This document shows positions 5,035 to 42,055 of a DNA stretch of 64,000 nucleotides, piece after piece. Positions within the stretch are counted from its first letter, which is position 1. Each line of letters begins with the position of its first letter. The translations under genes were made by a program, and so were the position numbers. This DNA comes from an uncultured Methanosarcinales archaeon (GTDB lineage Archaea > Nanobdellota > Nanobdellia > Woesearchaeales > JACPBV01), in the NCBI GenBank assembly GCA_964618315.1, contig CAZTWQ010000001.1, forward strand, positions 6,877 to 70,876, written 5' to 3'. Below the pieces are notes generated by a model. The model was not told the origin of the DNA and made no database searches. It saw only the letters and a program-made list of their open reading frames with translations.

Positions 5035-5174
5035 TTTACTTATTGATACTAAGGGGATAATAATAAATTAGCCCTTATATATTAAACAAAAAGTTTATAT
5101 ATTAAATAGATATTTACTTTATACTAGTAAATTATTATTTTATGTAATTTCAGAGAGAATTTCAACAACAAAGG

Positions 5175-5864
5175 TTGTTGAAATGGGTTGTTTTAAAGGA
5201 AAATAAGCGAGGTTGGTTTTATATGACACATACTGTAATAGCGGCTGTTGGAGAGAATATGGATTCATTATTTGTTGGAATACGGGAGTTTCCTACTAAA
5301 CGGATTATTTTGATATCTCCGGATGATAACTTAGAATTGGCTGAGAAAACAAAGAAAGATCTTGAAAAGTTTAAGATTCCAGTGGTTATAAAGAAAGTTT
5401 CTGGAAATCCGTGGGAGGCTATGTTTGAGGCTGTAAAGCAGATAAAGGAAGAAGAAGGTGATGATAAACAGCTTATAATAAATGCTGCTTCAGGTGATGC
5501 TGGTGCTAATAAATGCGCCCTTTGTTCTGCTGCATTTGTCAATGGGTTAAAGGCATTTACTGTACATAAAGATAATGTTATGTTAATGCCAATATTGAAG
5601 TTTTCTTATTATAAGATATTAACTGATAAGAAAATGGATATATTGAAGTTTTTGCATAAGAACAAAGATTGCTGTGCTTCTCTGGATGAATTGGGCAAGA
5701 AGTTGAAGATGAGTTTGCCTCTTGTCTCTTATCATATAAACGGCAATCTCAAGTCTGAGGGGCTTAAGGAGATGGGTCTAGTTATGGCTGATGAATGGAA
5801 AGGGAAGATAAAGATTAGTTTGACATTACTTGGTAAGCTGCTTGTTAAAGGGTATGTTAAGTAG
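5175..5864 (+). CDS. putative transcriptional regulator with a Rossmann-like (CARF/Csa3-like) N-domain and a C-terminal winged HTH
   Basis: The N-terminus (VIAAVGENMDSLFVGIREFPTKRIILISPDD) looks like a ligand-binding Rossmann domain; the C-terminus (LKFLHKNKDCCASLDELGKKLKMSLPLVSYHINGNLKSEGL) looks like a wHTH. The real start may be Met16, near position 5220. Confidence 0.4.
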   Translation: MLKWVVLKENKRGWFYMTHTVIAAVGENMDSLFVGIREFPTKRIILISPDDNLELAEKTKKDLEKFKIPVVIKKVSGNPWEAMFEAVKQIKEEEGDDKQLIINAASGDAGANKCALCSAAFVNGLKAFTVHKDNVMLMPILKFSYYKILTDKKMDILKFLHKNKDCCASLDELGKKLKMSLPLVSYHINGNLKSEGLKEMGLVMADEWKGKIKISLTLLGKLLVKGYVK

Positions 5865-5976
5865 GGGTGGATATAGACTTTCCCTGTCTAAATAAGATTA
5901 AATAGTTTTTATTTATTACTCTTAAATAGTTAAGTTTTTATACTAAACAAGTATTTCTTTTGAATTAGAATTTAAG

Positions 5977-7116
5977 ATGAATGAAATAGATGATCAAGTC
6001 AGGATAGATATGGGAGAATTAGGGGCAGCAATAGGAGATAGAGTTTTATCTAGTCGTTGGATTGATAATCCAGACGAAGTAGATGGACATGAAGAATTCT
6101 TAGTTGGACTTGAAAGGAAGTTAGATGCTTTAACTGATGATAGGTTAAGGGGTAATATGGGGTGTGCTTCAAATAAATCTAAAAGGCCATATGATAGATT
6201 GAGAGAAAGGAAAGATCACCATTCTAAACATACTAACTATCCTATCCCTAGTCAAAGATTAACAGACCGTGTTCCTGAACATCTTATCCCTTATATAGGG
6301 GATAGAAGGGGTTTGATTGTTCGATTAACTTTAGTAAATAAGAAACAAGTTTATGCTGCTGAAAGAGATATAAATGCTGGCAGAACTGATGTTTTTGATT
6401 ATAAGTTTACAAAGGGAACTAAGAGAGAAAGGCAAGCCCTTTTAGATGTTCAAAAGGAACGGACTTTATCATATGGGGGGGTCGAGAATAAAAGAGTAGT
6501 TCTTACAAGAGAAGATGCACTACGAGCTATAGAGGGAGTTTATCAAGGATACCACAATCATACTGATTTTATATTTCATCCACAGGCAATAAGATATAAG
6601 AAACACTTAAAAGCTGCACAGGTTGCACGAGAATGTGAGACTATTGATGGAATAGCTGATGATATTTCTAAAGGGATTATTTATGATGAAACTAAACTTG
6701 TTATTTTAAGTACTAAAGAAGCAGTATTGCATGCGCTTGAATATGCTAATAATGATGTATACTTTGATACAGATAAAGTTGAATTCGAAAGTGTGTATTG
6801 GACTGAAGGTTATGTTAATGAGTTAACAACCAAAGTTCATGAACAAATGTGTGAACGTGAAGGAATTGTCGCAGACAATCCTAACGATTCAGAAGAAACC
6901 TCAAGACGTGATGAAAAATCAGATGGGATAAGGTCTGAAGGTTATAAGGGAATGCAAACGCTGAGGGATTGTCCTGCAGATTCCAGTAATGGGATGGATC
7001 ACTTAATGGTCCCTGAAATGCAGCCACATAAACAGAGACTTTTAAGAATGAGGGGGGGATATCATATAACTCTGACTGCGATGAATGGGGGGGATTTTAG
7101 TAGATTGAATCGATAA
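5977..7116 (+). CDS. hypothetical protein (ORFan) with atypical composition
   Basis: 379-aa ORF in a region visibly more GC-rich than its neighbours; rich in Arg, Asp and Gly; no recognisable motif. Confidence 0.5.
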   Translation: MNEIDDQVRIDMGELGAAIGDRVLSSRWIDNPDEVDGHEEFLVGLERKLDALTDDRLRGNMGCASNKSKRPYDRLRERKDHHSKHTNYPIPSQRLTDRVPEHLIPYIGDRRGLIVRLTLVNKKQVYAAERDINAGRTDVFDYKFTKGTKRERQALLDVQKERTLSYGGVENKRVVLTREDALRAIEGVYQGYHNHTDFIFHPQAIRYKKHLKAAQVARECETIDGIADDISKGIIYDETKLVILSTKEAVLHALEYANNDVYFDTDKVEFESVYWTEGYVNELTTKVHEQMCEREGIVADNPNDSEETSRRDEKSDGIRSEGYKGMQTLRDCPADSSNGMDHLMVPEMQPHKQRLLRMRGGYHITLTAMNGGDFSRLNR

Positions 7117-7272
7117 GATTCGTTCTTTTTCATTAAAAAAACTTTTTTTCTAGAAATAGTTTAGGTAATGTGTGTTAGTTTCTCCTACCTAGGGAATCCC
7201 CATGAAAACCATAAAGTTTATATATAAGTCTATATATATTATTATATAAATTCATATAAATAGGTGATTTAA

Positions 7273-7536
7273 ATGCAAGAGTTAGAAATTATACATTATC
7301 CAAACTTAAAAACTGTATTGATGGTAGAAGATGTTCTAAAGAAAGCTAATAATCTTATGACAAGAGAAGGACTAAAGAAAAAATTACCTAATAAAGTAAT
7401 GCACCAAACTTTGAATGTTATACTTAAATATTTAGAAAATAGTGGAAAAATATTAGATGGAAGAAAGGGAATATTATGGACATATAATCCAAGCCCTAAA
7501 TTAGATAAAGCAATAAAAGATGGGGTTGAATTATAA
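7273..7536 (+). CDS. putative wHTH protein / antitoxin-like partner
   Basis: 87 aa with an HTH-like helix pair and wing; its end overlaps the downstream RelE-like ORF by 17 nt. Confidence 0.35.
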   Translation: MQELEIIHYPNLKTVLMVEDVLKKANNLMTREGLKKKLPNKVMHQTLNVILKYLENSGKILDGRKGILWTYNPSPKLDKAIKDGVEL

Positions 7537-7969
7537 TGCAAGCAAAAATTGTAAATTTTTGGTGCACAAAAAATCAAAAGGTGATTTTTTAGTGTTTAAG
7601 GGTAAACCTACAAAAGTTGTTATTACTGGTAAAGCTAAGGAAGAATTTGATGATTTGAATAAGTTAGTAGGTGAGGAAATTACTAAAGGAATTACAAGCA
7701 GTGATCATCAAACATTACTCAATTCCATAAAGCAGAAAATTGAATTATTGAGGGATAATCCTGAATATGGAATCCATATCTCTAAAGATAGAATCCCTAA
7801 AGAATACATTAGAGATTATGACGTTAATAATTTATGGAAAGTCAATCTTTCTGGGGCTTGGAGAATGGTTTATACTATGAGGGGTAGTGATGTAGAGATT
7901 CTTTCTTTGATATTAGACCTAATGAATCATAAAGACTACAATAAGAAGTTTGGTTATAAAGATAAATAG
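7520..7969 (+). CDS. RelE/ParE-family toxin-like protein with an N-terminal extension
   Basis: The C-terminal segment LWKVNLSGAWRMVYTMRGSDVEILSLILDLMNHKDY resembles the RelE/ParE core; it is coupled to the upstream small ORF. Confidence 0.45.
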   Translation: MGLNYNASKNCKFLVHKKSKGDFLVFKGKPTKVVITGKAKEEFDDLNKLVGEEITKGITSSDHQTLLNSIKQKIELLRDNPEYGIHISKDRIPKEYIRDYDVNNLWKVNLSGAWRMVYTMRGSDVEILSLILDLMNHKDYNKKFGYKDK

Positions 7970-8039
7970 TTTTCTTGGGCCCTTAATATTTAGGAAGTCT
8001 TTTTTGAATTGAATATAAATTAAATAATTATTTCTTGTA

Positions 8040-9992
8040 TCATGTTAATATCCCTAAGATAGGGAATACATAATTTGATAATGCCCCGAAGATTAAAGCA
8101 ATTATTATTGTTGCCAGAATTATATATGTTGCTCTTTTCCAACCTACTTCTCTGCCAAGAACAGCTATCGTGGCTACACAAGGTATGTATAATGATGTCA
8201 CTAAGCTGAATACGAAAATCTGTAATGGGGTTAAGAATGATAAGAGGTTACTTGTGCCGCCTATTGCAATCAGCATCTCTAAAGCCATCTCTTTTCTAAA
8301 GATTCCAAATAGTAATGTGATTCCTGCACTTGCTGGCAGGCCTAATAATCCCTGCATGATCGGTTCAAAAGGTTTCATTAAATAAATCAATAGATTGTAT
8401 TCTGTTAGTATGCCGATTAATGCTGCTCCTGCGATTAAAAGTGGGAATGCGATGTAAACAAAATCCTTAAGTCTTATCCATGTTTTTTTTATTATACCTT
8501 TTATAGATGGTAATCTGAAAGGGGGCATCTCTAGTATTAATCCTGTGTGTTCGCCAGGTAATAGTTTTCCTAAGACATATCCTGCTGCAAAGATTACGAT
8601 CAAGTCTATTGCATATATTAATAATGCAAATTGCCAGCCTACATATTTTGCAGTTGCCCCTAATATTACTGCAGTTACTGCAGAACATGGTACTAAACAG
8701 ACCATCACTATTGTTATGAAACGCTCTCTGAATGAAGATAATGTTCTTGTTGAAAGGATTGCAGGTACGTTGCAGCCAAAGCCAAGCATCATAGGTATGG
8801 TTGATTTACCATGTAGTTTTAATCTGTGCATTACCCTATCTAATAAATATGCCATCCTTGTTAAATATCCTGAATCTTCTAAGATACCCATCATTATGTA
8901 GAATACTGTGATATAAGGGATTGCTATTGCTAAGCCTGATTCTATACCAACTATGAAGCCATGTTCAAGAAGAACTTTTATGAAATTAATAGGGATTGTA
9001 CCTATTATAATTCTGAATATAGGTGCAATGTAAGTTTGAAAAGAGTTTATTAAGACTTGTTCAAGGTTGCCTCCAACTGTGAAAAGAGTATAGAACATTA
9101 TAGCTAATATTGATATTAAGATTGGAATTCCTGTTTTTGGTTCTATTGTCAGTCTGCTTAATCTTTCTCTGAGATTTATATTATTCTTTTTTCCTATCTG
9201 TGTTACTTTTTTTGCAATCAAAGATGATTCCCCATGACGATCTTTTGATATGTATGTAGGAATATCATGGAATTTTTTGTATCTTGAGATTGTCTTTTCT
9301 ACCCTTCCTTTTCGCCTTATTTCATGCCATGGAAGGGAACTACCTTCCAGAAGATCCAATATAATTTCCCGTTTGTTTTCTGTTAATACTTTTAGATCCT
9401 GGATAAGGTTTTCTATATGATCATCATATTTTGGTTTAAAGTAATTGAATCTAATCTTTTTGTTGATTACTTCTTCACATTTTTTTGCGAGTTTTTCTAT
9501 GCCTTTTCCGTTTAAGCAGTCTACTTCTACAACTGGAACTCCAAGTGTTTTGCTTAATTCTTTTGAGTTTATTATAATGCCTTTGTCCCTTGCTTCTTCT
9601 ATAAAATTTAGGGCTATAACTACAGGTAATTTATGCTCTATCAATTGTAATGTGAGATATAGGTTTCTTTCAAGATTGTTTGCATCTATCACATTTACTA
9701 TAACTGATGGTTTTCGGCATATGATATAATCTCTTGTCACTTTTTCATCTTCAGAAGACTCGCCAAAAGAATAAGATCCAGGCAGATCTGTTATCTTTAT
9801 ATCCTTAAAATATTTTAGATTTGTCAATCCACTCATGACATCTACTGTAGTTCCTGGATAGTTAGAGACTGTTGCACCAATGCCTGTAAATTGATTAAAG
9901 AGGCAGCTTTTACCAACATTGGGGTTAGCTACTAAAGCTATCTCTTTACTAAATTTTAGTTCATCTAATTTAGGTATAGTATGACATTTCAT
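8040..9992 (-). CDS. feoB: ferrous iron transporter FeoB
   Basis: N-terminal G-domain (GNPNVGKS, DLPG) followed by a polytopic membrane domain; 650 aa. Confidence 0.9.
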   Translation of the reverse strand: MKCHTIPKLDELKFSKEIALVANPNVGKSCLFNQFTGIGATVSNYPGTTVDVMSGLTNLKYFKDIKITDLPGSYSFGESSEDEKVTRDYIICRKPSVIVNVIDANNLERNLYLTLQLIEHKLPVVIALNFIEEARDKGIIINSKELSKTLGVPVVEVDCLNGKGIEKLAKKCEEVINKKIRFNYFKPKYDDHIENLIQDLKVLTENKREIILDLLEGSSLPWHEIRRKGRVEKTISRYKKFHDIPTYISKDRHGESSLIAKKVTQIGKKNNINLRERLSRLTIEPKTGIPILISILAIMFYTLFTVGGNLEQVLINSFQTYIAPIFRIIIGTIPINFIKVLLEHGFIVGIESGLAIAIPYITVFYIMMGILEDSGYLTRMAYLLDRVMHRLKLHGKSTIPMMLGFGCNVPAILSTRTLSSFRERFITIVMVCLVPCSAVTAVILGATAKYVGWQFALLIYAIDLIVIFAAGYVLGKLLPGEHTGLILEMPPFRLPSIKGIIKKTWIRLKDFVYIAFPLLIAGAALIGILTEYNLLIYLMKPFEPIMQGLLGLPASAGITLLFGIFRKEMALEMLIAIGGTSNLLSFLTPLQIFVFSLVTSLYIPCVATIAVLGREVGWKRATYIILATIIIALIFGALSNYVFPILGILT

Positions 9993-13090: not shown

Positions 13091-14137
13091 TTATCCTGAA
13101 TAATCATATTTATTCATTTTAAATCCAGAATTAACCCTATGTCTTATTGTGCTTGGAGGTATATTAATTAGGGGTGATATTTTATAAGGAGTTAATCCTT
13201 TTTCTGTTAATTCTTTTATTCTTATATTCTGATTATTTATCTTTTCAAATCTTTTTTGATAATGATTTAAAGCATTCGAAAGTTTTTTTCTTTTTTCAGG
13301 ATGAGTAAATCCAATTAGTTTACTATATCTAAGGATTGATTTATTGCGGCCTATTGTGATAGTTGGTTCAGAAATCCTAGATTGAATTCCTAAGTCTTCC
13401 AATAGGGATTTGATGAATAGGAGCTCTTCCTCGCACTTTTGTGATCCACTAACAGAAAACATGCCTTTTTTTAGATTGAAATGGACACAACCTTCATCAT
13501 CAAAGAAAGCCTTTAGATATATTTTTTTGTATTCATCATTAGTTATTATGATAGTTTTATCAAAATTAAGAATATCTAAATGCATTAATTTGGAAGAGTA
13601 AATAAGTTGAGTTACTCCTGAACCTACTTTTGATCTTGTTGGTTTTAATCCATAAACAAAGCCCATATCATTTTCAAATTCACTTAATAATTCTTGATTT
13701 TTGTTTATGTAACTAATTACATAAGAGTTATTTTTACTAACATAACCATCAAATATTGAATGTGCATAGATCCTTACTTTTTCTTTGGTTATTTTATCAA
13801 ATCCTTTTTTAAGGGGTTTAGGATAGATAGGAAATTGAACTTTCCCCTTAATGCAATCTTTTATGAAATTTATAGAATGGCCTGTAATTTTTCTAACTTT
13901 TCTTAGAGATTTAACTTTGTTATAAATCTTACATAGATTGTCAACTTTTTGGTTTTTCTTAATTCCTGCTATTTCACTATTAGATTTTATATGAATTCCA
14001 CCCTTGATTAATCTTTTCTTAATGCCTTCTCTTGAAAGTCCAAACTTTTTTGCTAAATTAGTTAATGTTATTCTTTTATCTAAGACATATATTTTTTCAA
14101 TTTCTTTAATTATTTCTTCTGATATTTTTTTTATCAT
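13091..14137 (-). CDS. LAGLIDADG-type homing-endonuclease-like protein with N- and C-terminal HTH domains
   Basis: Two LAGLIDADG-like motifs (HSIFDGYVS and KAFFDDEGCV), an N-terminal HTH (LTNLAKKFGLSREGIKKRL) and a C-terminal HTH (GLTPYKISPLINIPPSTIRHRV). Confidence 0.6.
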   Translation of the reverse strand: MIKKISEEIIKEIEKIYVLDKRITLTNLAKKFGLSREGIKKRLIKGGIHIKSNSEIAGIKKNQKVDNLCKIYNKVKSLRKVRKITGHSINFIKDCIKGKVQFPIYPKPLKKGFDKITKEKVRIYAHSIFDGYVSKNNSYVISYINKNQELLSEFENDMGFVYGLKPTRSKVGSGVTQLIYSSKLMHLDILNFDKTIIITNDEYKKIYLKAFFDDEGCVHFNLKKGMFSVSGSQKCEEELLFIKSLLEDLGIQSRISEPTITIGRNKSILRYSKLIGFTHPEKRKKLSNALNHYQKRFEKINNQNIRIKELTEKGLTPYKISPLINIPPSTIRHRVNSGFKMNKYDYSG

Positions 14138-14299
14138 CTTAAATCACCTCCATTTAAGATTTCTTTTAATTTATTGGAAGAAATCAGGGGGGTTGAAAAA
14201 AGATACCTGAAAGCTAAACTCCATAATTGATTTTTGTGTCTGAAAGATCAAAAATCATTATTTAGGAGTTTTGCATGGTCTCTTTTTTATTAAGAGTGT

Positions 14300-14430
14300 A
14301 GAATTACTCATTTATATATCCTGCGGGGGTGTCTGGCAAGTGGCAAGTGGGTGCCTAAAACTACTGTAACCATTAAATTTAGGCTCTAGAAGGCTTCTCG
14401 CACTTGCCAAAATTTTGGCAAGTGGGATGA
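14300..14430 (+). other. conserved upstream module A: TATA-like box followed by an array of GGCAAGTG motifs (two direct, one inverted, one direct); possible divergent ncRNA or operator array
   Basis: TTTATATAT at 14311; TGGCAAGTGGCAAGTGG at 14334..14350; CACTTGCCAAAATTTTGGCAAGTGGG at 14401..14426. Roughly 80% identical to the module at 41930..42055. Confidence 0.4.
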
Positions 14431-17855: not shown

Positions 17856-17926
17856 TATGATATTATGTACCTAGCTTTTTTATAAACATTTTGTTTTATT
17901 GGCATTTGAAGAAGAAATGAATAAGG

Positions 17927-18089
17927 GGCTGCGTTGAAAATCTCACTACGTTCGGGTTGCCATCGGGTTCGCTTCTTGAAGTTGGTATGGATAACTGACA
18001 TTCCCCGTAAGGGACCTCCCCCTTGTCAGTTTGAAGTGATTATCTATCAAGCTCACGAATTGATGGCGACCTATATTTTCAACGCAGCC
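17927..18089. mobile_element. MITE-like element E1 (163 bp, about 15-bp TIR GGCTGCGTTGAAAAT, degenerate TSD)
   Basis: Its core is about 90% identical to E2 (36713..36875). Perfect terminal inverted repeats GGCTGCGTTGAAAAT / ATTTTCAACGCAGCC. Flanks GAATAAG / GGATAAG look like a decayed TSD. Confidence 0.45.
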
Positions 18090-18166
18090 ATGGATAAGAA
18101 GAAACTTTTTATTTATACCTTATAAACAACACAATGTTTATAAATGTCAATAAAACCTTTTAAGAA

Positions 18167-31539: not shown

Positions 31540-32316
31540 ATGAAAACGCAAAATTTAACTCAAAAATTGAACTTTTATGAATTGATTGGAGTTATTTTGG
31601 GGGATGGATGTATAAAATACTATCCTTCACATAAAGTATATACCCTAGAAATAACTGGAGATGCAAAAGATGATCAAGAATATTTTAGTAAATTATCGAA
31701 GTTAATTACAAGTATAACTAATAAAACTCCAACTGTTAGAATAAGCATAGATAAGAAAAAGCGAGCCTTGAGATTAGAATTACACAGTAAAAAGTTTTTG
31801 GAGTTTTTATTGAACGATGTAGGAATAACTAATAAAAAGAAATCATTCAATGCAGAAATCCCTAAGAAGTACCTAGAGTGGAAATATAGTAAACATATTA
31901 TTAGAGGCATATTTGAAACAGATGGTTCACTTTATTTTTCAAAATCAAAAAAGATTAAATACACTTCTTATCCAAGGATAGAAATTAAGACATCTAGTAA
32001 AAAATTAGCTTTGCAAATATTTGAATTGCTCAAACAAAAAGCTTTTAAAGTACAAAAGAGACCTAGCAAAACAGATAAGACAATTAGAGTCTATCTTAGT
32101 GGATCTGAAATGCTTAATAAATGGTTAAAAGAAATCGGTTTTTCAAGTATGAAAAAATACAGTAAATATTTGTTTTGGAAAAAATTTGGTTATTATATTC
32201 CAAAAACACCTTATAAGAAAAGAATGATTCTCATAAGGGAGCATGGCCAAGTGGCTAAGGCGTCCGCCTGCAGAGCGGATATTCGGGGGTTCAAATCCCT
32301 CTGCTCCCTCTTATAA
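31540..32316 (+). CDS. LAGLIDADG-type homing-endonuclease-like protein (paralog 2); the ORF reads through tRNA-Cys
   Basis: Motifs IGVILGDGCI and IRGIFETDGSL. The last 27 codons or so are encoded by the tRNA-Cys sequence, so the true C-terminus is uncertain. Confidence 0.5.
   Translation: MKTQNLTQKLNFYELIGVILGDGCIKYYPSHKVYTLEITGDAKDDQEYFSKLSKLITSITNKTPTVRISIDKKKRALRLELHSKKFLEFLLNDVGITNKKKSFNAEIPKKYLEWKYSKHIIRGIFETDGSLYFSKSKKIKYTSYPRIEIKTSSKKLALQIFELLKQKAFKVQKRPSKTDKTIRVYLSGSEMLNKWLKEIGFSSMKKYSKYLFWKKFGYYIPKTPYKKRMILIREHGQVAKASACRADIRGFKSLCSLL
32237..32308 (+). tRNA. tRNA-Cys (GCA)
   Basis: Hand-folded cloverleaf: acceptor GGGAGCA/TGCTCCC, anticodon stem TCCGC/GCGGA with loop CTGCAGA, T-loop TTCAAAT; 72 nt with no encoded CCA; immediately upstream of cysS. 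Confidence 0.8.
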
Positions 32317-36610: not shown

Positions 36611-36712
36611 AATAAGTTAGAGAATAAGGTTATTGTATATAAATGTTTTTGGAATAAAAGAGTAAAGATTAGATCAAACTTTAGAAAAATTTAATAGTCT
36701 TTTGAGAAAAAG

Positions 36713-36875
36713 GGCTTAGTAGAAAATCTCCCGTTGGTCGGGTTGCCATCGGGTTCGCTTCTTGAAGTTGGTATAGATAACTGACATTCCCCGTAAGGGA
36801 CTTCCCCCTTGCCAGTTAGATGTATCTATTTAAGAAGCTCATAAATTGATGGCAACCTATATTTTCTACTAAGCC
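36713..36875. mobile_element. MITE-like element E2 (163 bp) with 19-bp TIR GGCTTAGTAGAAAA... and a perfect 9-bp TSD GAGAAAAAG
   Basis: TSD copies at 36704..36712 and 36876..36884; termini GGCTTAGTAGAAAAT / ATTTTCTACTAAGCC; internal sequence homologous to E1. Confidence 0.55.
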
Positions 36876-36920
36876 GAGAAAAAGAGAATATTAATAAACA
36901 TAAGTTGCTTACTAGTTTCT

Positions 36921-40852: not shown

Positions 40853-40998
40853 GGGGCTGTAGCTCAGCCTGGGAGAGCACTAGACTGAAGTTCCTATGAT
40901 CTGCAGAGGCTTTTGCCGATGAAGAGCAGAGATCTAGGTGTCCTGGGAAGTCGCAATACCATGTGCGTCTTGGGAAAATTCAAATTCCGGCAGCCCCA
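40853..40998 (+). tRNA. tRNA-Phe (GAA) with a canonical 41-nt intron at position 37/38 and a predicted second intron of about 31 nt in the T-arm
   Basis: 5' half GGGGCTGTAGCTCAGCCTGGGAGAGCACTAGACTGAAG; exon 2 A-TCTAG-GTGTC-CTGGG; exon 3 TTCAAATTCCGG-CAGCCCC-A. The mature length would be 74 nt with a standard cloverleaf. Confidence 0.7.
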
Positions 40999-41765
40999 CT
41001 CTTTTTTAAACCTTTTATTATTTTAGGGGGTCTTCCTTTTTTACTTGTGATTGTTCCACTTTTTAGATATTCTTCATACTTATTAAGATGTCTTTGGTTT
41101 CTAAAACCAATTAATTTCATCCATAATTGAAGGTTTTGACGACCACTTAATCTTAATCTGCTTTCAATCCAAGTTTTTCCAAACCTTTTATCAAAATTTC
41201 TATCTTCTGGAATAAAGTCAACATTAAAACCTAATTTTTCTAGAAATTTTGAGAATAGTATGATTATTTTTTTATCCACTAAACTTAAAGATATTACTGG
41301 GTAATGTGGATATTTCTTTCTATTTCTATAGAGCATTAAAGAAAAATCTGTATCTGCTAATCCCTTAAGGGTGTGTAGAAGATAATCTTGGTTATTGAGT
41401 ATCCAATTTGGAATTTTAATATTCCTACTATGATGTTTATAGTATCCCATTCCCTTAATGAAATTGAATAATCCTAGTGAACTGAAGTTAATTTCTATTA
41501 AATTCTTATATTTCCTTTGGATAATTTTAACATTTATGTTAAAAAGGTTTTTGATTAAATTTTTTACATAGTGAAAATAATCATAATCTAATCTAGAATC
41601 TCCTGATACAGATATGATATTATATCTAGTATTAAAGCTAACATGCCCATCTCCTGCCAGTATACCAATAAACTCTGCTAATTTTTTAGATGGTCCCTTA
41701 GGTAAAACTAAGCCTCGTTTTCTATCTACATGACTAAATTCTATTTTTGATATATCAAATTCCAT
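40980..41765 (-). CDS. LAGLIDADG-type homing-endonuclease-like protein (paralog 3)
   Basis: Motifs IGILAGDGHVS and LKGLADTDFS; the 3' end overlaps the 3' end of tRNA-Phe on the opposite strand by about 19 nt. Confidence 0.55.
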   Translation of the reverse strand: MEFDISKIEFSHVDRKRGLVLPKGPSKKLAEFIGILAGDGHVSFNTRYNIISVSGDSRLDYDYFHYVKNLIKNLFNINVKIIQRKYKNLIEINFSSLGLFNFIKGMGYYKHHSRNIKIPNWILNNQDYLLHTLKGLADTDFSLMLYRNRKKYPHYPVISLSLVDKKIIILFSKFLEKLGFNVDFIPEDRNFDKRFGKTWIESRLRLSGRQNLQLWMKLIGFRNQRHLNKYEEYLKSGTITSKKGRPPKIIKGLKKSGAAGI

Positions 41766-41929
41766 CTTAAATCACCTCCATTAAGATTTCTTTTCATTTA
41801 TTGAAAGAAATTCTTGGAGATTTGAAAAAAGAGGTCAAAGAGCGAAACTCTGTAATTGATTTTCTAGAAAGTGGAAAATCATTATTTAACAGTTTTGCGT
41901 GAACTCTTTTTTATTAAGAATGTAAAAAT

Positions 41930-42055
41930 ACTAGTTTATATATCTGGCGGAGGTGGTTGGCAAGTGGCAAGTGGGGGTGCTAAAACAGCTAATTCATTAG
42001 AATTTAAATGATAGAAGGCTTCTCGTCACTTGCCAAAATGTTGGCAAGTGAGATT
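41930..42055 (+). other. conserved upstream module B (paralog of module A): TATA-like box plus a GGCAAGTG motif array
   Basis: TTTATATAT at 41936; TTGGCAAGTGGCAAGTGGG at 41957..41975; CACTTGCCAAAATGTTGGCAAGTG at 42027..42050. The whole 41766..42070 stretch is homologous to 14138..14440. Confidence 0.4.

Follow-up and report, generated by a model that had tools for sequence, protein, structure and literature searches.

The stretch of DNA considered here, referred to as the window, comprises 64 kb of archaeal sequence with a mean guanine-plus-cytosine (GC) content of 33.3%. Its host is a low-GC DPANN archaeon of the Nanoarchaeota/Woesearchaeota type, close homologues of two of the window's proteins bearing the names Nanoarchaeota, Woesearchaeota or Aenigmarchaeota. 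From 5175 to 9992 its genes are, in order, a rubrerythrin/desulfoferrodoxin cluster on the minus strand, then on the plus strand a regulator gene, a 379-codon open reading frame (ORF379), a shorter one specifying 87 amino acids (ORF87) and a RelE/ParE-like ORF, and finally, on the minus strand again, feoB together with a DtxR/FeoA-type regulator. The subject is the 2.2-kb islet at 5865-8039. It is bordered on its left by the regulator gene, which lies outside it and specifies a CARF3 domain plus a winged helix (5223-5864, plus strand, 213 amino acids from the ATG at 5223), and on its right by feoB (8040-9992, minus strand), which is convergent with the islet's last two genes. A first-pass annotation, made from the sequence alone, had listed three ORFs here, at 5977-7116 (379 amino acids), 7273-7536 (87 amino acids) and 7520-7969 (149 amino acids), and all three are present, the last with a start that is reconsidered below. 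The reading favored in what follows, to which a probability of roughly 60% is attached, is that the islet is a lineage-specific insertion of two independent units, an ORFan cargo gene and a toxin–antitoxin-like cassette, between the CARF–winged-helix gene and feoB.

The comparison that carries this reading is with five sister loci (L016, L018, L019, L020 and L025) representing four CARF lineages that are 87-92% identical. All five keep the rubrerythrin cluster on the minus strand next to the CARF gene on the plus strand, and all five are without ORF379 and the gene pair downstream of it. What follows the sister CARF gene, 0-24 nt 3′ of it and convergent with it, is an ACS-GNAT gene in L016, a histone deacetylase gene in L018, L019 and L020, and in L025 a 443-amino-acid gene with a weak LysM match that is unrelated to the others and to ORF379. 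DNA similarity of the window to its sisters stops at the regulator stop codon, the site directly 3′ of the CARF gene being 5865 in the window, 8666 in L016, 8635 in L018, 8641 in L020 and 6654 in L025. On the feoB side, L016 has feoB 5 kb further on from the CARF region, and the nearest genome as judged by FeoB (L002, a metagenome-assembled genome (MAG) named ‘Nanoarchaeota archaeon’, with FeoB 77% identical) has feoB and its regulator in synteny with the window, followed by OsmC, DUF134 and PdaD genes, with the islet absent. None of the ORFs of at least 50 amino acids from the sister loci and L002 matches ORF379 in any frame. That the islet is a relic of sister genes (ACS-GNAT, histone deacetylase, DUF134 or AsnC) was considered and rejected, no trace of them being found in any frame. 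Since the block is absent from the sister loci and similarity ends at the CARF stop codon, 5865-8039 is, as far as sequence comparison indicates, a lineage-specific insertion where gene content turns over. Such turnover has a local hotspot directly 3′ of the CARF gene, where the gene changes from one close relative to the next in almost every case. The contrary pattern, an ORFan conserved at the syntenic position in relatives, was seen neither in the five sister loci nor in L002.

ORF379 itself (5977-7116, plus strand) is not a chance ORF, since its 379 codons are far above the longest stop-free stretches recorded in 100 Markov-simulated 64-kb sequences, which correspond to 197 amino acids with the composition of the window and 212 with that of ORF379. 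One gene caller picks an alternative start, M12 (6010), which leaves 368 amino acids. Ahead of the gene is an AT-rich spacer (5865-5976, plus strand, 22% GC) that has TATA-like runs (TTTTTATA at about 5934), is without counterpart in the sister loci and may function as a promoter. After the stop codon a second spacer (7117-7194, plus strand), lying outside the DNA similarity to other copies of the cassette, separates ORF379 from that cassette; its T-runs are like those of archaeal terminators and could act accordingly. The product is predicted to be soluble, cytoplasmic and highly charged (isoelectric point 6.0, grand average of hydropathy -0.81, no hydrophobic or membrane segment). A model from AlphaFold2 (AF2) with the single sequence has a predicted local distance difference test (pLDDT) score of 34 and is unusable. 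An apparent internal duplication (residues 172-190 versus 240-256) was dismissed as not significant (BLASTP E = 0.13).

The first-pass annotation had pointed to a rise in GC across this gene, from about 30% in its surroundings, as a mark of foreign DNA. In an AT-rich genome, however, amino-acid content alone can raise GC locally, and an appeal to horizontal transfer therefore calls for a prior look at GC at third codon positions (GC3) and at codon usage. The rise is real toward the 3′ end, where the last 156 nt (6961-7116) are 42.9% GC, a value equaled or exceeded by 2% of equal-length segments, but it is small over the gene as a whole (36.6%, compared with 33.3% for the window; 6.9% of equal-length segments are as high or higher). 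Similarly, the figure for the surroundings is true of the two small genes (26-30%) and, between genes, of the AT-rich spacers (22-24%), but not of the resident neighbors, the CARF gene being 35.5% GC and feoB 33.7%. By codon position, ORF379 has GC1 0.511, GC2 0.363 and GC3 0.224, the window mean for the last being 0.260. As the excess is confined to positions 1 and 2, it is due to the amino-acid composition of the product, in which arginine makes up 9.2%, the highest among 51 ORFs (mean 3.2%), and aspartate plus glutamate 17.4%. The leave-one-out synonymous-codon log-likelihood, -0.922, is better than the median of -0.949. With GC3 and synonymous usage both native, composition gives no sign of foreign origin, and what the profiles reveal is a real coding region with a native mutational signature, not a foreign segment.

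Protein searches with ORF379 were of two kinds, one word-indexed over 5.8e9 clusters and the other an exhaustive phmmer search over 1.84 billion representatives, together covering ~15 billion proteins. They return only its own near-identical copies (P0001, P0003 and P0004, which are one gene). A further phmmer hit, P0002 (2877 amino acids, E = 9.5e-6), was rejected as a homologue, being a 32-residue chance match inflated over the 12 repeats of a giant repeat protein. There was no match in Pfam, NCBIfam, PADLOC (none at E ≤ 1) or PHROGs, and none among PDB sequences, IMG/VR viral contigs, GenBank phages or plasmids; Pfam searches with five sub-segments were likewise empty. The absence of a recognizable motif noted at first pass is thereby borne out. 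The 90% cluster to which the protein belongs has three entries, namely the window version, the same protein taken from M12 and one variant, while exactly the same protein as that of the window recurs on 24 or more contigs, which come from several samples. As an ORFan ORF379 is genuine, and it is restricted to one population.

The second unit is a mobile two-gene cassette (~7195-7980, plus strand) made up of its own promoter region, ORF87 and the RelE/ParE-like ORF, here called ORF125. Its limits come from blastn, with which DNA identity is 84% to L021/L022 over 7195-7538 and 7590-7980 only, and 73-76% to L023/L024. The unit so defined includes ~78 nt of promoter region, ends 11 nt past the stop codon and excludes ORF379. 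Elsewhere the cassette is found beside an IS200-type TnpA gene and a ParE pair (L021/L022), among unannotated genes (L023) and beside ThsB-TIR and RNA polymerase genes (L024), and at none of these copies is there an ORF379-like neighbor; a 378-amino-acid gene in L021 that was considered as a relative of ORF379 proved unrelated. Because the conserved mobile DNA unit excludes ORF379, ORF379 and the pair are treated as independent units. The earlier notion of a horizontally acquired cassette therefore needs dividing: the block is indeed absent from the sister sites, but its composition gives no sign of foreign origin and it is two units, not one.

Within the cassette, ORF87 (7273-7536, plus strand), a candidate antitoxin gene, is 82-85% identical to the upstream partner (85-87 amino acids) in L021, L023 and L024. 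Its product is a putative winged-helix protein, as its helix/strand pattern suggests; it has no Pfam or NCBIfam family match, and its closest approaches are to the PADLOC AbiEi N-terminal model (E = 0.015) and a PHROG (E = 0.08). For ORF125, the candidate toxin gene (7592-7969, plus strand), there are 399 homologues, and the 120 listed are 76-90% identical, nearly all of them having 125 amino acids and beginning MFKGKP. The two genes of the pairs in L021-L024 overlap by 1-4 nt at their stop and start (TAATG). In the window, DNA alignment reveals a lineage-specific insertion of ~55 nt between them (7538-7591, plus strand), and the family start is a GTG at 7592, in place of the ancestral ATG, 55 nt after the ORF87 stop codon. 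The insertion holds a second copy of the ribosome-binding motif AAGGTGATTT, ahead of that GTG, and the closest relatives of ORF125 (P0125-P0127) have the same extension/insertion as the window. The ATG at 7520, from which the 149-amino-acid form would start, arises from a lineage-specific codon change in ORF87 and is unique to this lineage. Overlapping ends, as reported at first pass, thus hold for the relatives, whereas in the window the overlap depends on taking the longest-ORF start, ATG 7520, rather than GTG 7592.

The proposal that the arrangement is that of a toxin–antitoxin (TA) module has fared better. The two genes are small and co-oriented, overlapping in L021-L024 and being 55 nt apart in the window, and their distribution is patchy, the contexts being unrelated and the pair being absent at this site in the sisters, so that in its architecture as in its distribution the pair matches a mobile type II TA module. 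Across MAGs labeled Woesearchaeota, Aenigmarchaeota and Nanoarchaeota, identity is 76-90% for the proteins and 73-84% for the DNA, promoter included, which suggests recent exchange of the pair between DPANN lineages.

As for the toxin, ORF125 is a probable member of the RelE/ParE superfamily. It scores 16.1 bits with PF05016 (cutoff 23), 18.7 with PF24732 (cutoff 24.4; E = 1.7e-3) and 22.8 with TIGR02385 (cutoff 27.9; E = 9.7e-5). PF05016 recurs in 25 of 27 family members (best E = 2.8e-4), and for two members of the family the JGI and NCBI names are RelE or RelE/ParE. Its motifs LWK-x-x-L-x-G-x-WR-x-x-Y and, C-terminally, H-[RK]-D-Y resemble the core of the RelE/ParE family. The order of elements in its low-confidence AF2 model (helices at 14-55, strands at 60-63, 78-86, 89-97 and 102-105) is compatible with the RelE/ParE fold, in which a helical hairpin at the N-terminus packs against an antiparallel sheet of 3-4 strands.

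The regulator gene at the left border, missed at first pass, is a conserved resident and not part of the islet. With PADLOC models its product matches CARF3 (7.2e-19, residues 22-224), CasR (6.4e-11) and Csa3 (1.2e-6), and with Pfam models PF19810 (DUF6293; 25.8 bits, under the 30-bit cutoff) and, at 150-189, HTH_24. It thus combines a CARF Rossmann-like N-terminal domain with a C-terminal winged helix, as CARF–winged-helix proteins do. Its start is the ATG at 5223, the longest-ORF start, TTG 5175, not being that of the family. There are 939 homologues, mostly of 209-213 amino acids, in DPANN MAGs, and the 120 listed are 56-100% identical. Divergent to it is the rubrerythrin/desulfoferrodoxin/thioredoxin-reductase cluster (in the window from 2060), an arrangement kept in every sister genome examined, and the spacer between them has a 27-nt motif, TATTAAACAAAAAGTTTAWATATTAAA (5080-5106), that is kept in all the sisters (L016, L018, L020 and L025). 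This Csa3-like protein may be a ligand-sensing regulator of oxidative-stress genes. A tandem-repeat scan of the window gave no CRISPR-like array. Also present is a perfect 11-bp inverted repeat, ATTTCAACAAC-AAAG-GTTGTTGAAAT (5159-5184), 39 nt upstream of the regulator ATG, which is not conserved in the sister loci.

A different matter is the variability of the 3′ end of ORF379. The GC-rich tail there (7052-7093, plus strand) has two runs of seven Gs, at 7052-7058 and 7087-7093, and a third such run lies further upstream, at 6475-6481; ORF379, which is 1.8% of the window, in this way accounts for three of the window's eight runs of at least seven Gs. All three encode Gly-Gly with a GGG codon, and no length variation occurs in them among the six contigs compared. 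One contig of the same population, scaffold_110 of ERZ23491324 (L001), overlaps the window for 17,116 nt and differs from it solely within a patch at 7074-7090 (11098-11114 of L001), between the two G7 runs of the tail. There, 9-15 codons before the stop, are seven ungapped substitutions in 17 nt that change four residues (T367V, A368W, G371W and G372W), LTAMNGGDF in the window being LVWMNWWDF in scaffold_110. Five further contigs are 99.98-100% identical to the window, with three single-nucleotide polymorphisms (SNPs) in all, one of them (contig L013) a synonymous change at 7095, 5 nt past the patch. A DNA-pattern scan for tail variants gave matches in the window and six other loci but none in a metagenome collection that evidently does not include these contigs, and no donor sequence for the variant patch was found elsewhere in the window. 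The tail also yields no sign of structured RNA, there being no Rfam match at the gathering threshold or at E ≤ 1 and folding z-scores of +0.24 and -0.07. The bases altered are G, A and C, and as all the changes are toward A/T next to homopolymer runs, the patch is most economically read as an artefact of assembly or sequencing, with real local polymorphism the alternative.

Under the reading favored here, ORF379 is a genuine protein-coding gene that was probably brought in as cargo by a mobile element or virus, as yet unsampled, whose DPANN hosts are similarly AT-rich, and it has its own promoter-like and terminator-like signals; the charge pattern of its product is suggestive of an accessory factor that binds nucleic acid or protein. 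The ~790-bp cassette would move among DPANN lineages with its own promoter and would most likely be a type II TA module, in which the 87-amino-acid winged-helix protein represses the promoter and neutralizes a 125-amino-acid toxin of RelE/ParE fold. That of a RelE-type ribosome-dependent mRNA endonuclease is the probable activity of that toxin, given its basic residues, which are conserved, and its H-[RK]-D-Y motif at the C-terminus. Such biochemical functions, whether for ORF379, ORF87 or ORF125, we infer from sequence features, whereas the sister-genome comparison, the limits of the two units, the ORFan status and the codon statistics are shown directly.

Several points weigh against this reading. 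There are no hallmarks of integration at 5865-8039: no integrase is encoded between 5175 and 9992, no convincing flanking direct repeats or att sites are present, and no tRNA gene is at the insertion, the sole one in the window being distant (32237-32309). Every known copy of ORF379 is at least 99% identical to the others, and the cassette was not found in viral contigs. For the toxin, every RelE/ParE score is below its curated cutoff, so that the RelE/ParE-like label given at first pass is upheld by weak concordant matches. Further, a PDB profile search with ORF125 was empty, its AF2 model is poor (pLDDT 51, from a 27-sequence alignment), Foldseek with that low-confidence model gave no PDB match at E < 0.4, and with hhalign a bona fide ParE aligns over the expected WR..Y core at an E of 0.067, which is not significant. 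Finally, the 76-90% identity that the pair retains from one DPANN phylum to another is unusually close conservation for TA genes and could reflect another conserved function.

The alternatives differ in which part of the islet they reinterpret. In the first-pass annotation the three genes were taken as one acquired cassette, possibly for defense or abortive infection, in which ORF379 would be the effector and the TA pair would stabilize it. They are indeed adjacent, on the same strand and jointly absent from the sisters; TA modules often occur in defense islands, and one other copy of the pair, that in L024, adjoins ThsB-TIR. This is nonetheless unlikely, for the mobile unit stops short of ORF379, whose like does not adjoin the other copies examined, and the 156 nt between ORF379 and ORF87 are AT-rich and contain T-runs as well as a promoter region that is conserved and separate. 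As ORF379 also has neither a PADLOC match nor any homologue among the ~15 billion proteins, and no link to the cassette was found, a defense role is not supported. Comparably doubtful is that ORF379 is non-functional, a recently arisen, decaying or spurious ORF such as a remnant of rearranged DNA. The lack of homologues would be in keeping with this, as would the unfolded single-sequence AF2 model, the ambiguity of the start (M1 or M12) and there being no diverged copies in which purifying selection could show itself. However, the gene is about twice as long as the longest chance ORF, has strong codon-position periodicity together with native codon usage, and contains no remnant of the sister-genome genes in any frame; moreover, 24 or more contigs of several samples have it in identical form, the three G7 runs having caused no frameshift.

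It is less probable again that with ORF379 a new family, one that evolves fast, has been sampled for the first time (its product being, say, a defense effector of one DPANN population or a protein that interacts with a virus or host), the 7074-7090 patch then being polymorphism that is real, targeted to this place and part of a surface for binding, and that, separately, the 87/125-amino-acid pair is a DPANN-specific mobile module with a role unlike classical RelE/ParE addiction. There is still less to recommend ORF379 as effector or target of the upstream CARF–winged-helix protein in a ligand-responsive regulator–effector pair, though the position of the CARF3–winged-helix gene is in its favor (directly upstream, on the same strand and 112 nt away). 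The regulator family, with its 939 matches, is conserved and in all the sisters is paired with the divergent rubrerythrin cluster and then followed by unrelated convergent genes. Moreover, the window has a single copy of the 27-nt motif, ahead of the regulator gene and not of ORF379, which argues against control of ORF379 by the CARF regulator. Most improbable of all is directed hypermutation, with the tail as its target, be it the variable region of a diversity-generating retroelement or otherwise, and ORF379 a diversified binding protein. Such retroelements are common in DPANN, all seven differences over 17.1 kb are packed into 17 nt near the C-terminus, where they alter four residues, and the additional SNP at 7095 and the concentration of G runs in ORF379 could be added to these. 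However, a Pfam scan of 24 window ORFs gave no reverse transcriptase, nothing elsewhere in the 64 kb repeats the tail (6801-7300) as a template would, and with G, A and C all affected the pattern is not adenine-specific. In addition, only two C-terminal versions are in the 90% cluster, one variant being set against at least 24 contigs with the same protein, and changes toward A/T by G runs fit an artefact of sequencing or assembly. A diversity-generating retroelement in particular is rejected on these grounds.

The islet is an example of a hotspot of gene flux lying 3′ of a CARF-type regulator gene that is conserved in DPANN archaea, and its analysis sets the limits of a small RelE/ParE-like cassette that is shared very widely. 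With present Pfam and NCBIfam models the 87/125-amino-acid pair does not come above threshold, and since family models miss the cassette in this way a dedicated model would be justified. ORF379 adds one more long, well-formed ORFan to the dark matter of DPANN genomes.

Some other features of the window are recorded for completeness. In contig L014 (9363-9370; 9368 of the window) feoB has one substitution and is called there as two genes (439 and 208 amino acids), a split due to a nonsense allele or else to an error of sequencing. Of LAGLIDADG homing-endonuclease-like ORFs there are three, all of them free-standing, at 13091-14137 (minus strand), 31540-32316 (plus strand) and 40980-41765 (minus strand). 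The second of them overlaps the window's only tRNA gene, and the flanks after the other two, 14154-14351 and 41781-41975, are 73-85% identical. A 177-nt direct repeat with 83% identity, its copies 18.8 kb apart, is at 17923-18099 and 36709-36885.

Comparison with known systems is instructive for each part of the islet. With the target genes of diversity-generating retroelements, ORF379 shares clustered non-synonymous differences near the C-terminus and a DPANN genome, but the reverse transcriptase, template repeat and adenine specificity that go with those elements are missing here, and a single variant faces 24 or more copies that are identical. The faint match of ORF87 to the AbiEi winged-helix N-terminus (E = 0.015) is a point of likeness to AbiE-type and other TA-like abortive-infection systems; unlike them, the locus has no AbiEii nucleotidyltransferase, the partner being RelE/ParE-like, and ORF379 is without a PADLOC match. 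The likeness of the pair to RelE/ParE type II TA modules (PF05016 ParE_toxin, PF24732 ParE_like and TIGR02385 RelE_StbE) is closer, with a small upstream gene for a putative DNA-binding protein followed by a toxin-sized gene of ~125 amino acids, stop/start overlap in the relatives of the pair, a mobile cassette in many unrelated contexts and recurrent weak matches to all three models. It departs from them in that ORF125 is ~35 amino acids longer than classical RelE or ParE and has no solved structure detectable by profile, the partner is a putative winged-helix protein with no match to a known antitoxin family, identity across DPANN phyla is unusually high (76-90%), and in the window the genes are uncoupled by the 55-nt insertion, with GTG as the toxin start. 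With lineage-specific archaeal ORFans, which are generally attributed to integrated mobile elements and viruses, ORF379 has in common the lack of homologues, confinement to one population and a variable locus beside a mobile cassette. ORFans of the typical kind have short, AT-rich sequences and codon usage that is atypical, whereas ORF379, with no integrase, att site or viral match to accompany it, is long (379 amino acids) and slightly GC-richer through its arginine, aspartate, glutamate and glycine, and has native codon usage. ORF379 and the pair nevertheless follow the ordinary pattern of gene flux for DPANN genomes.

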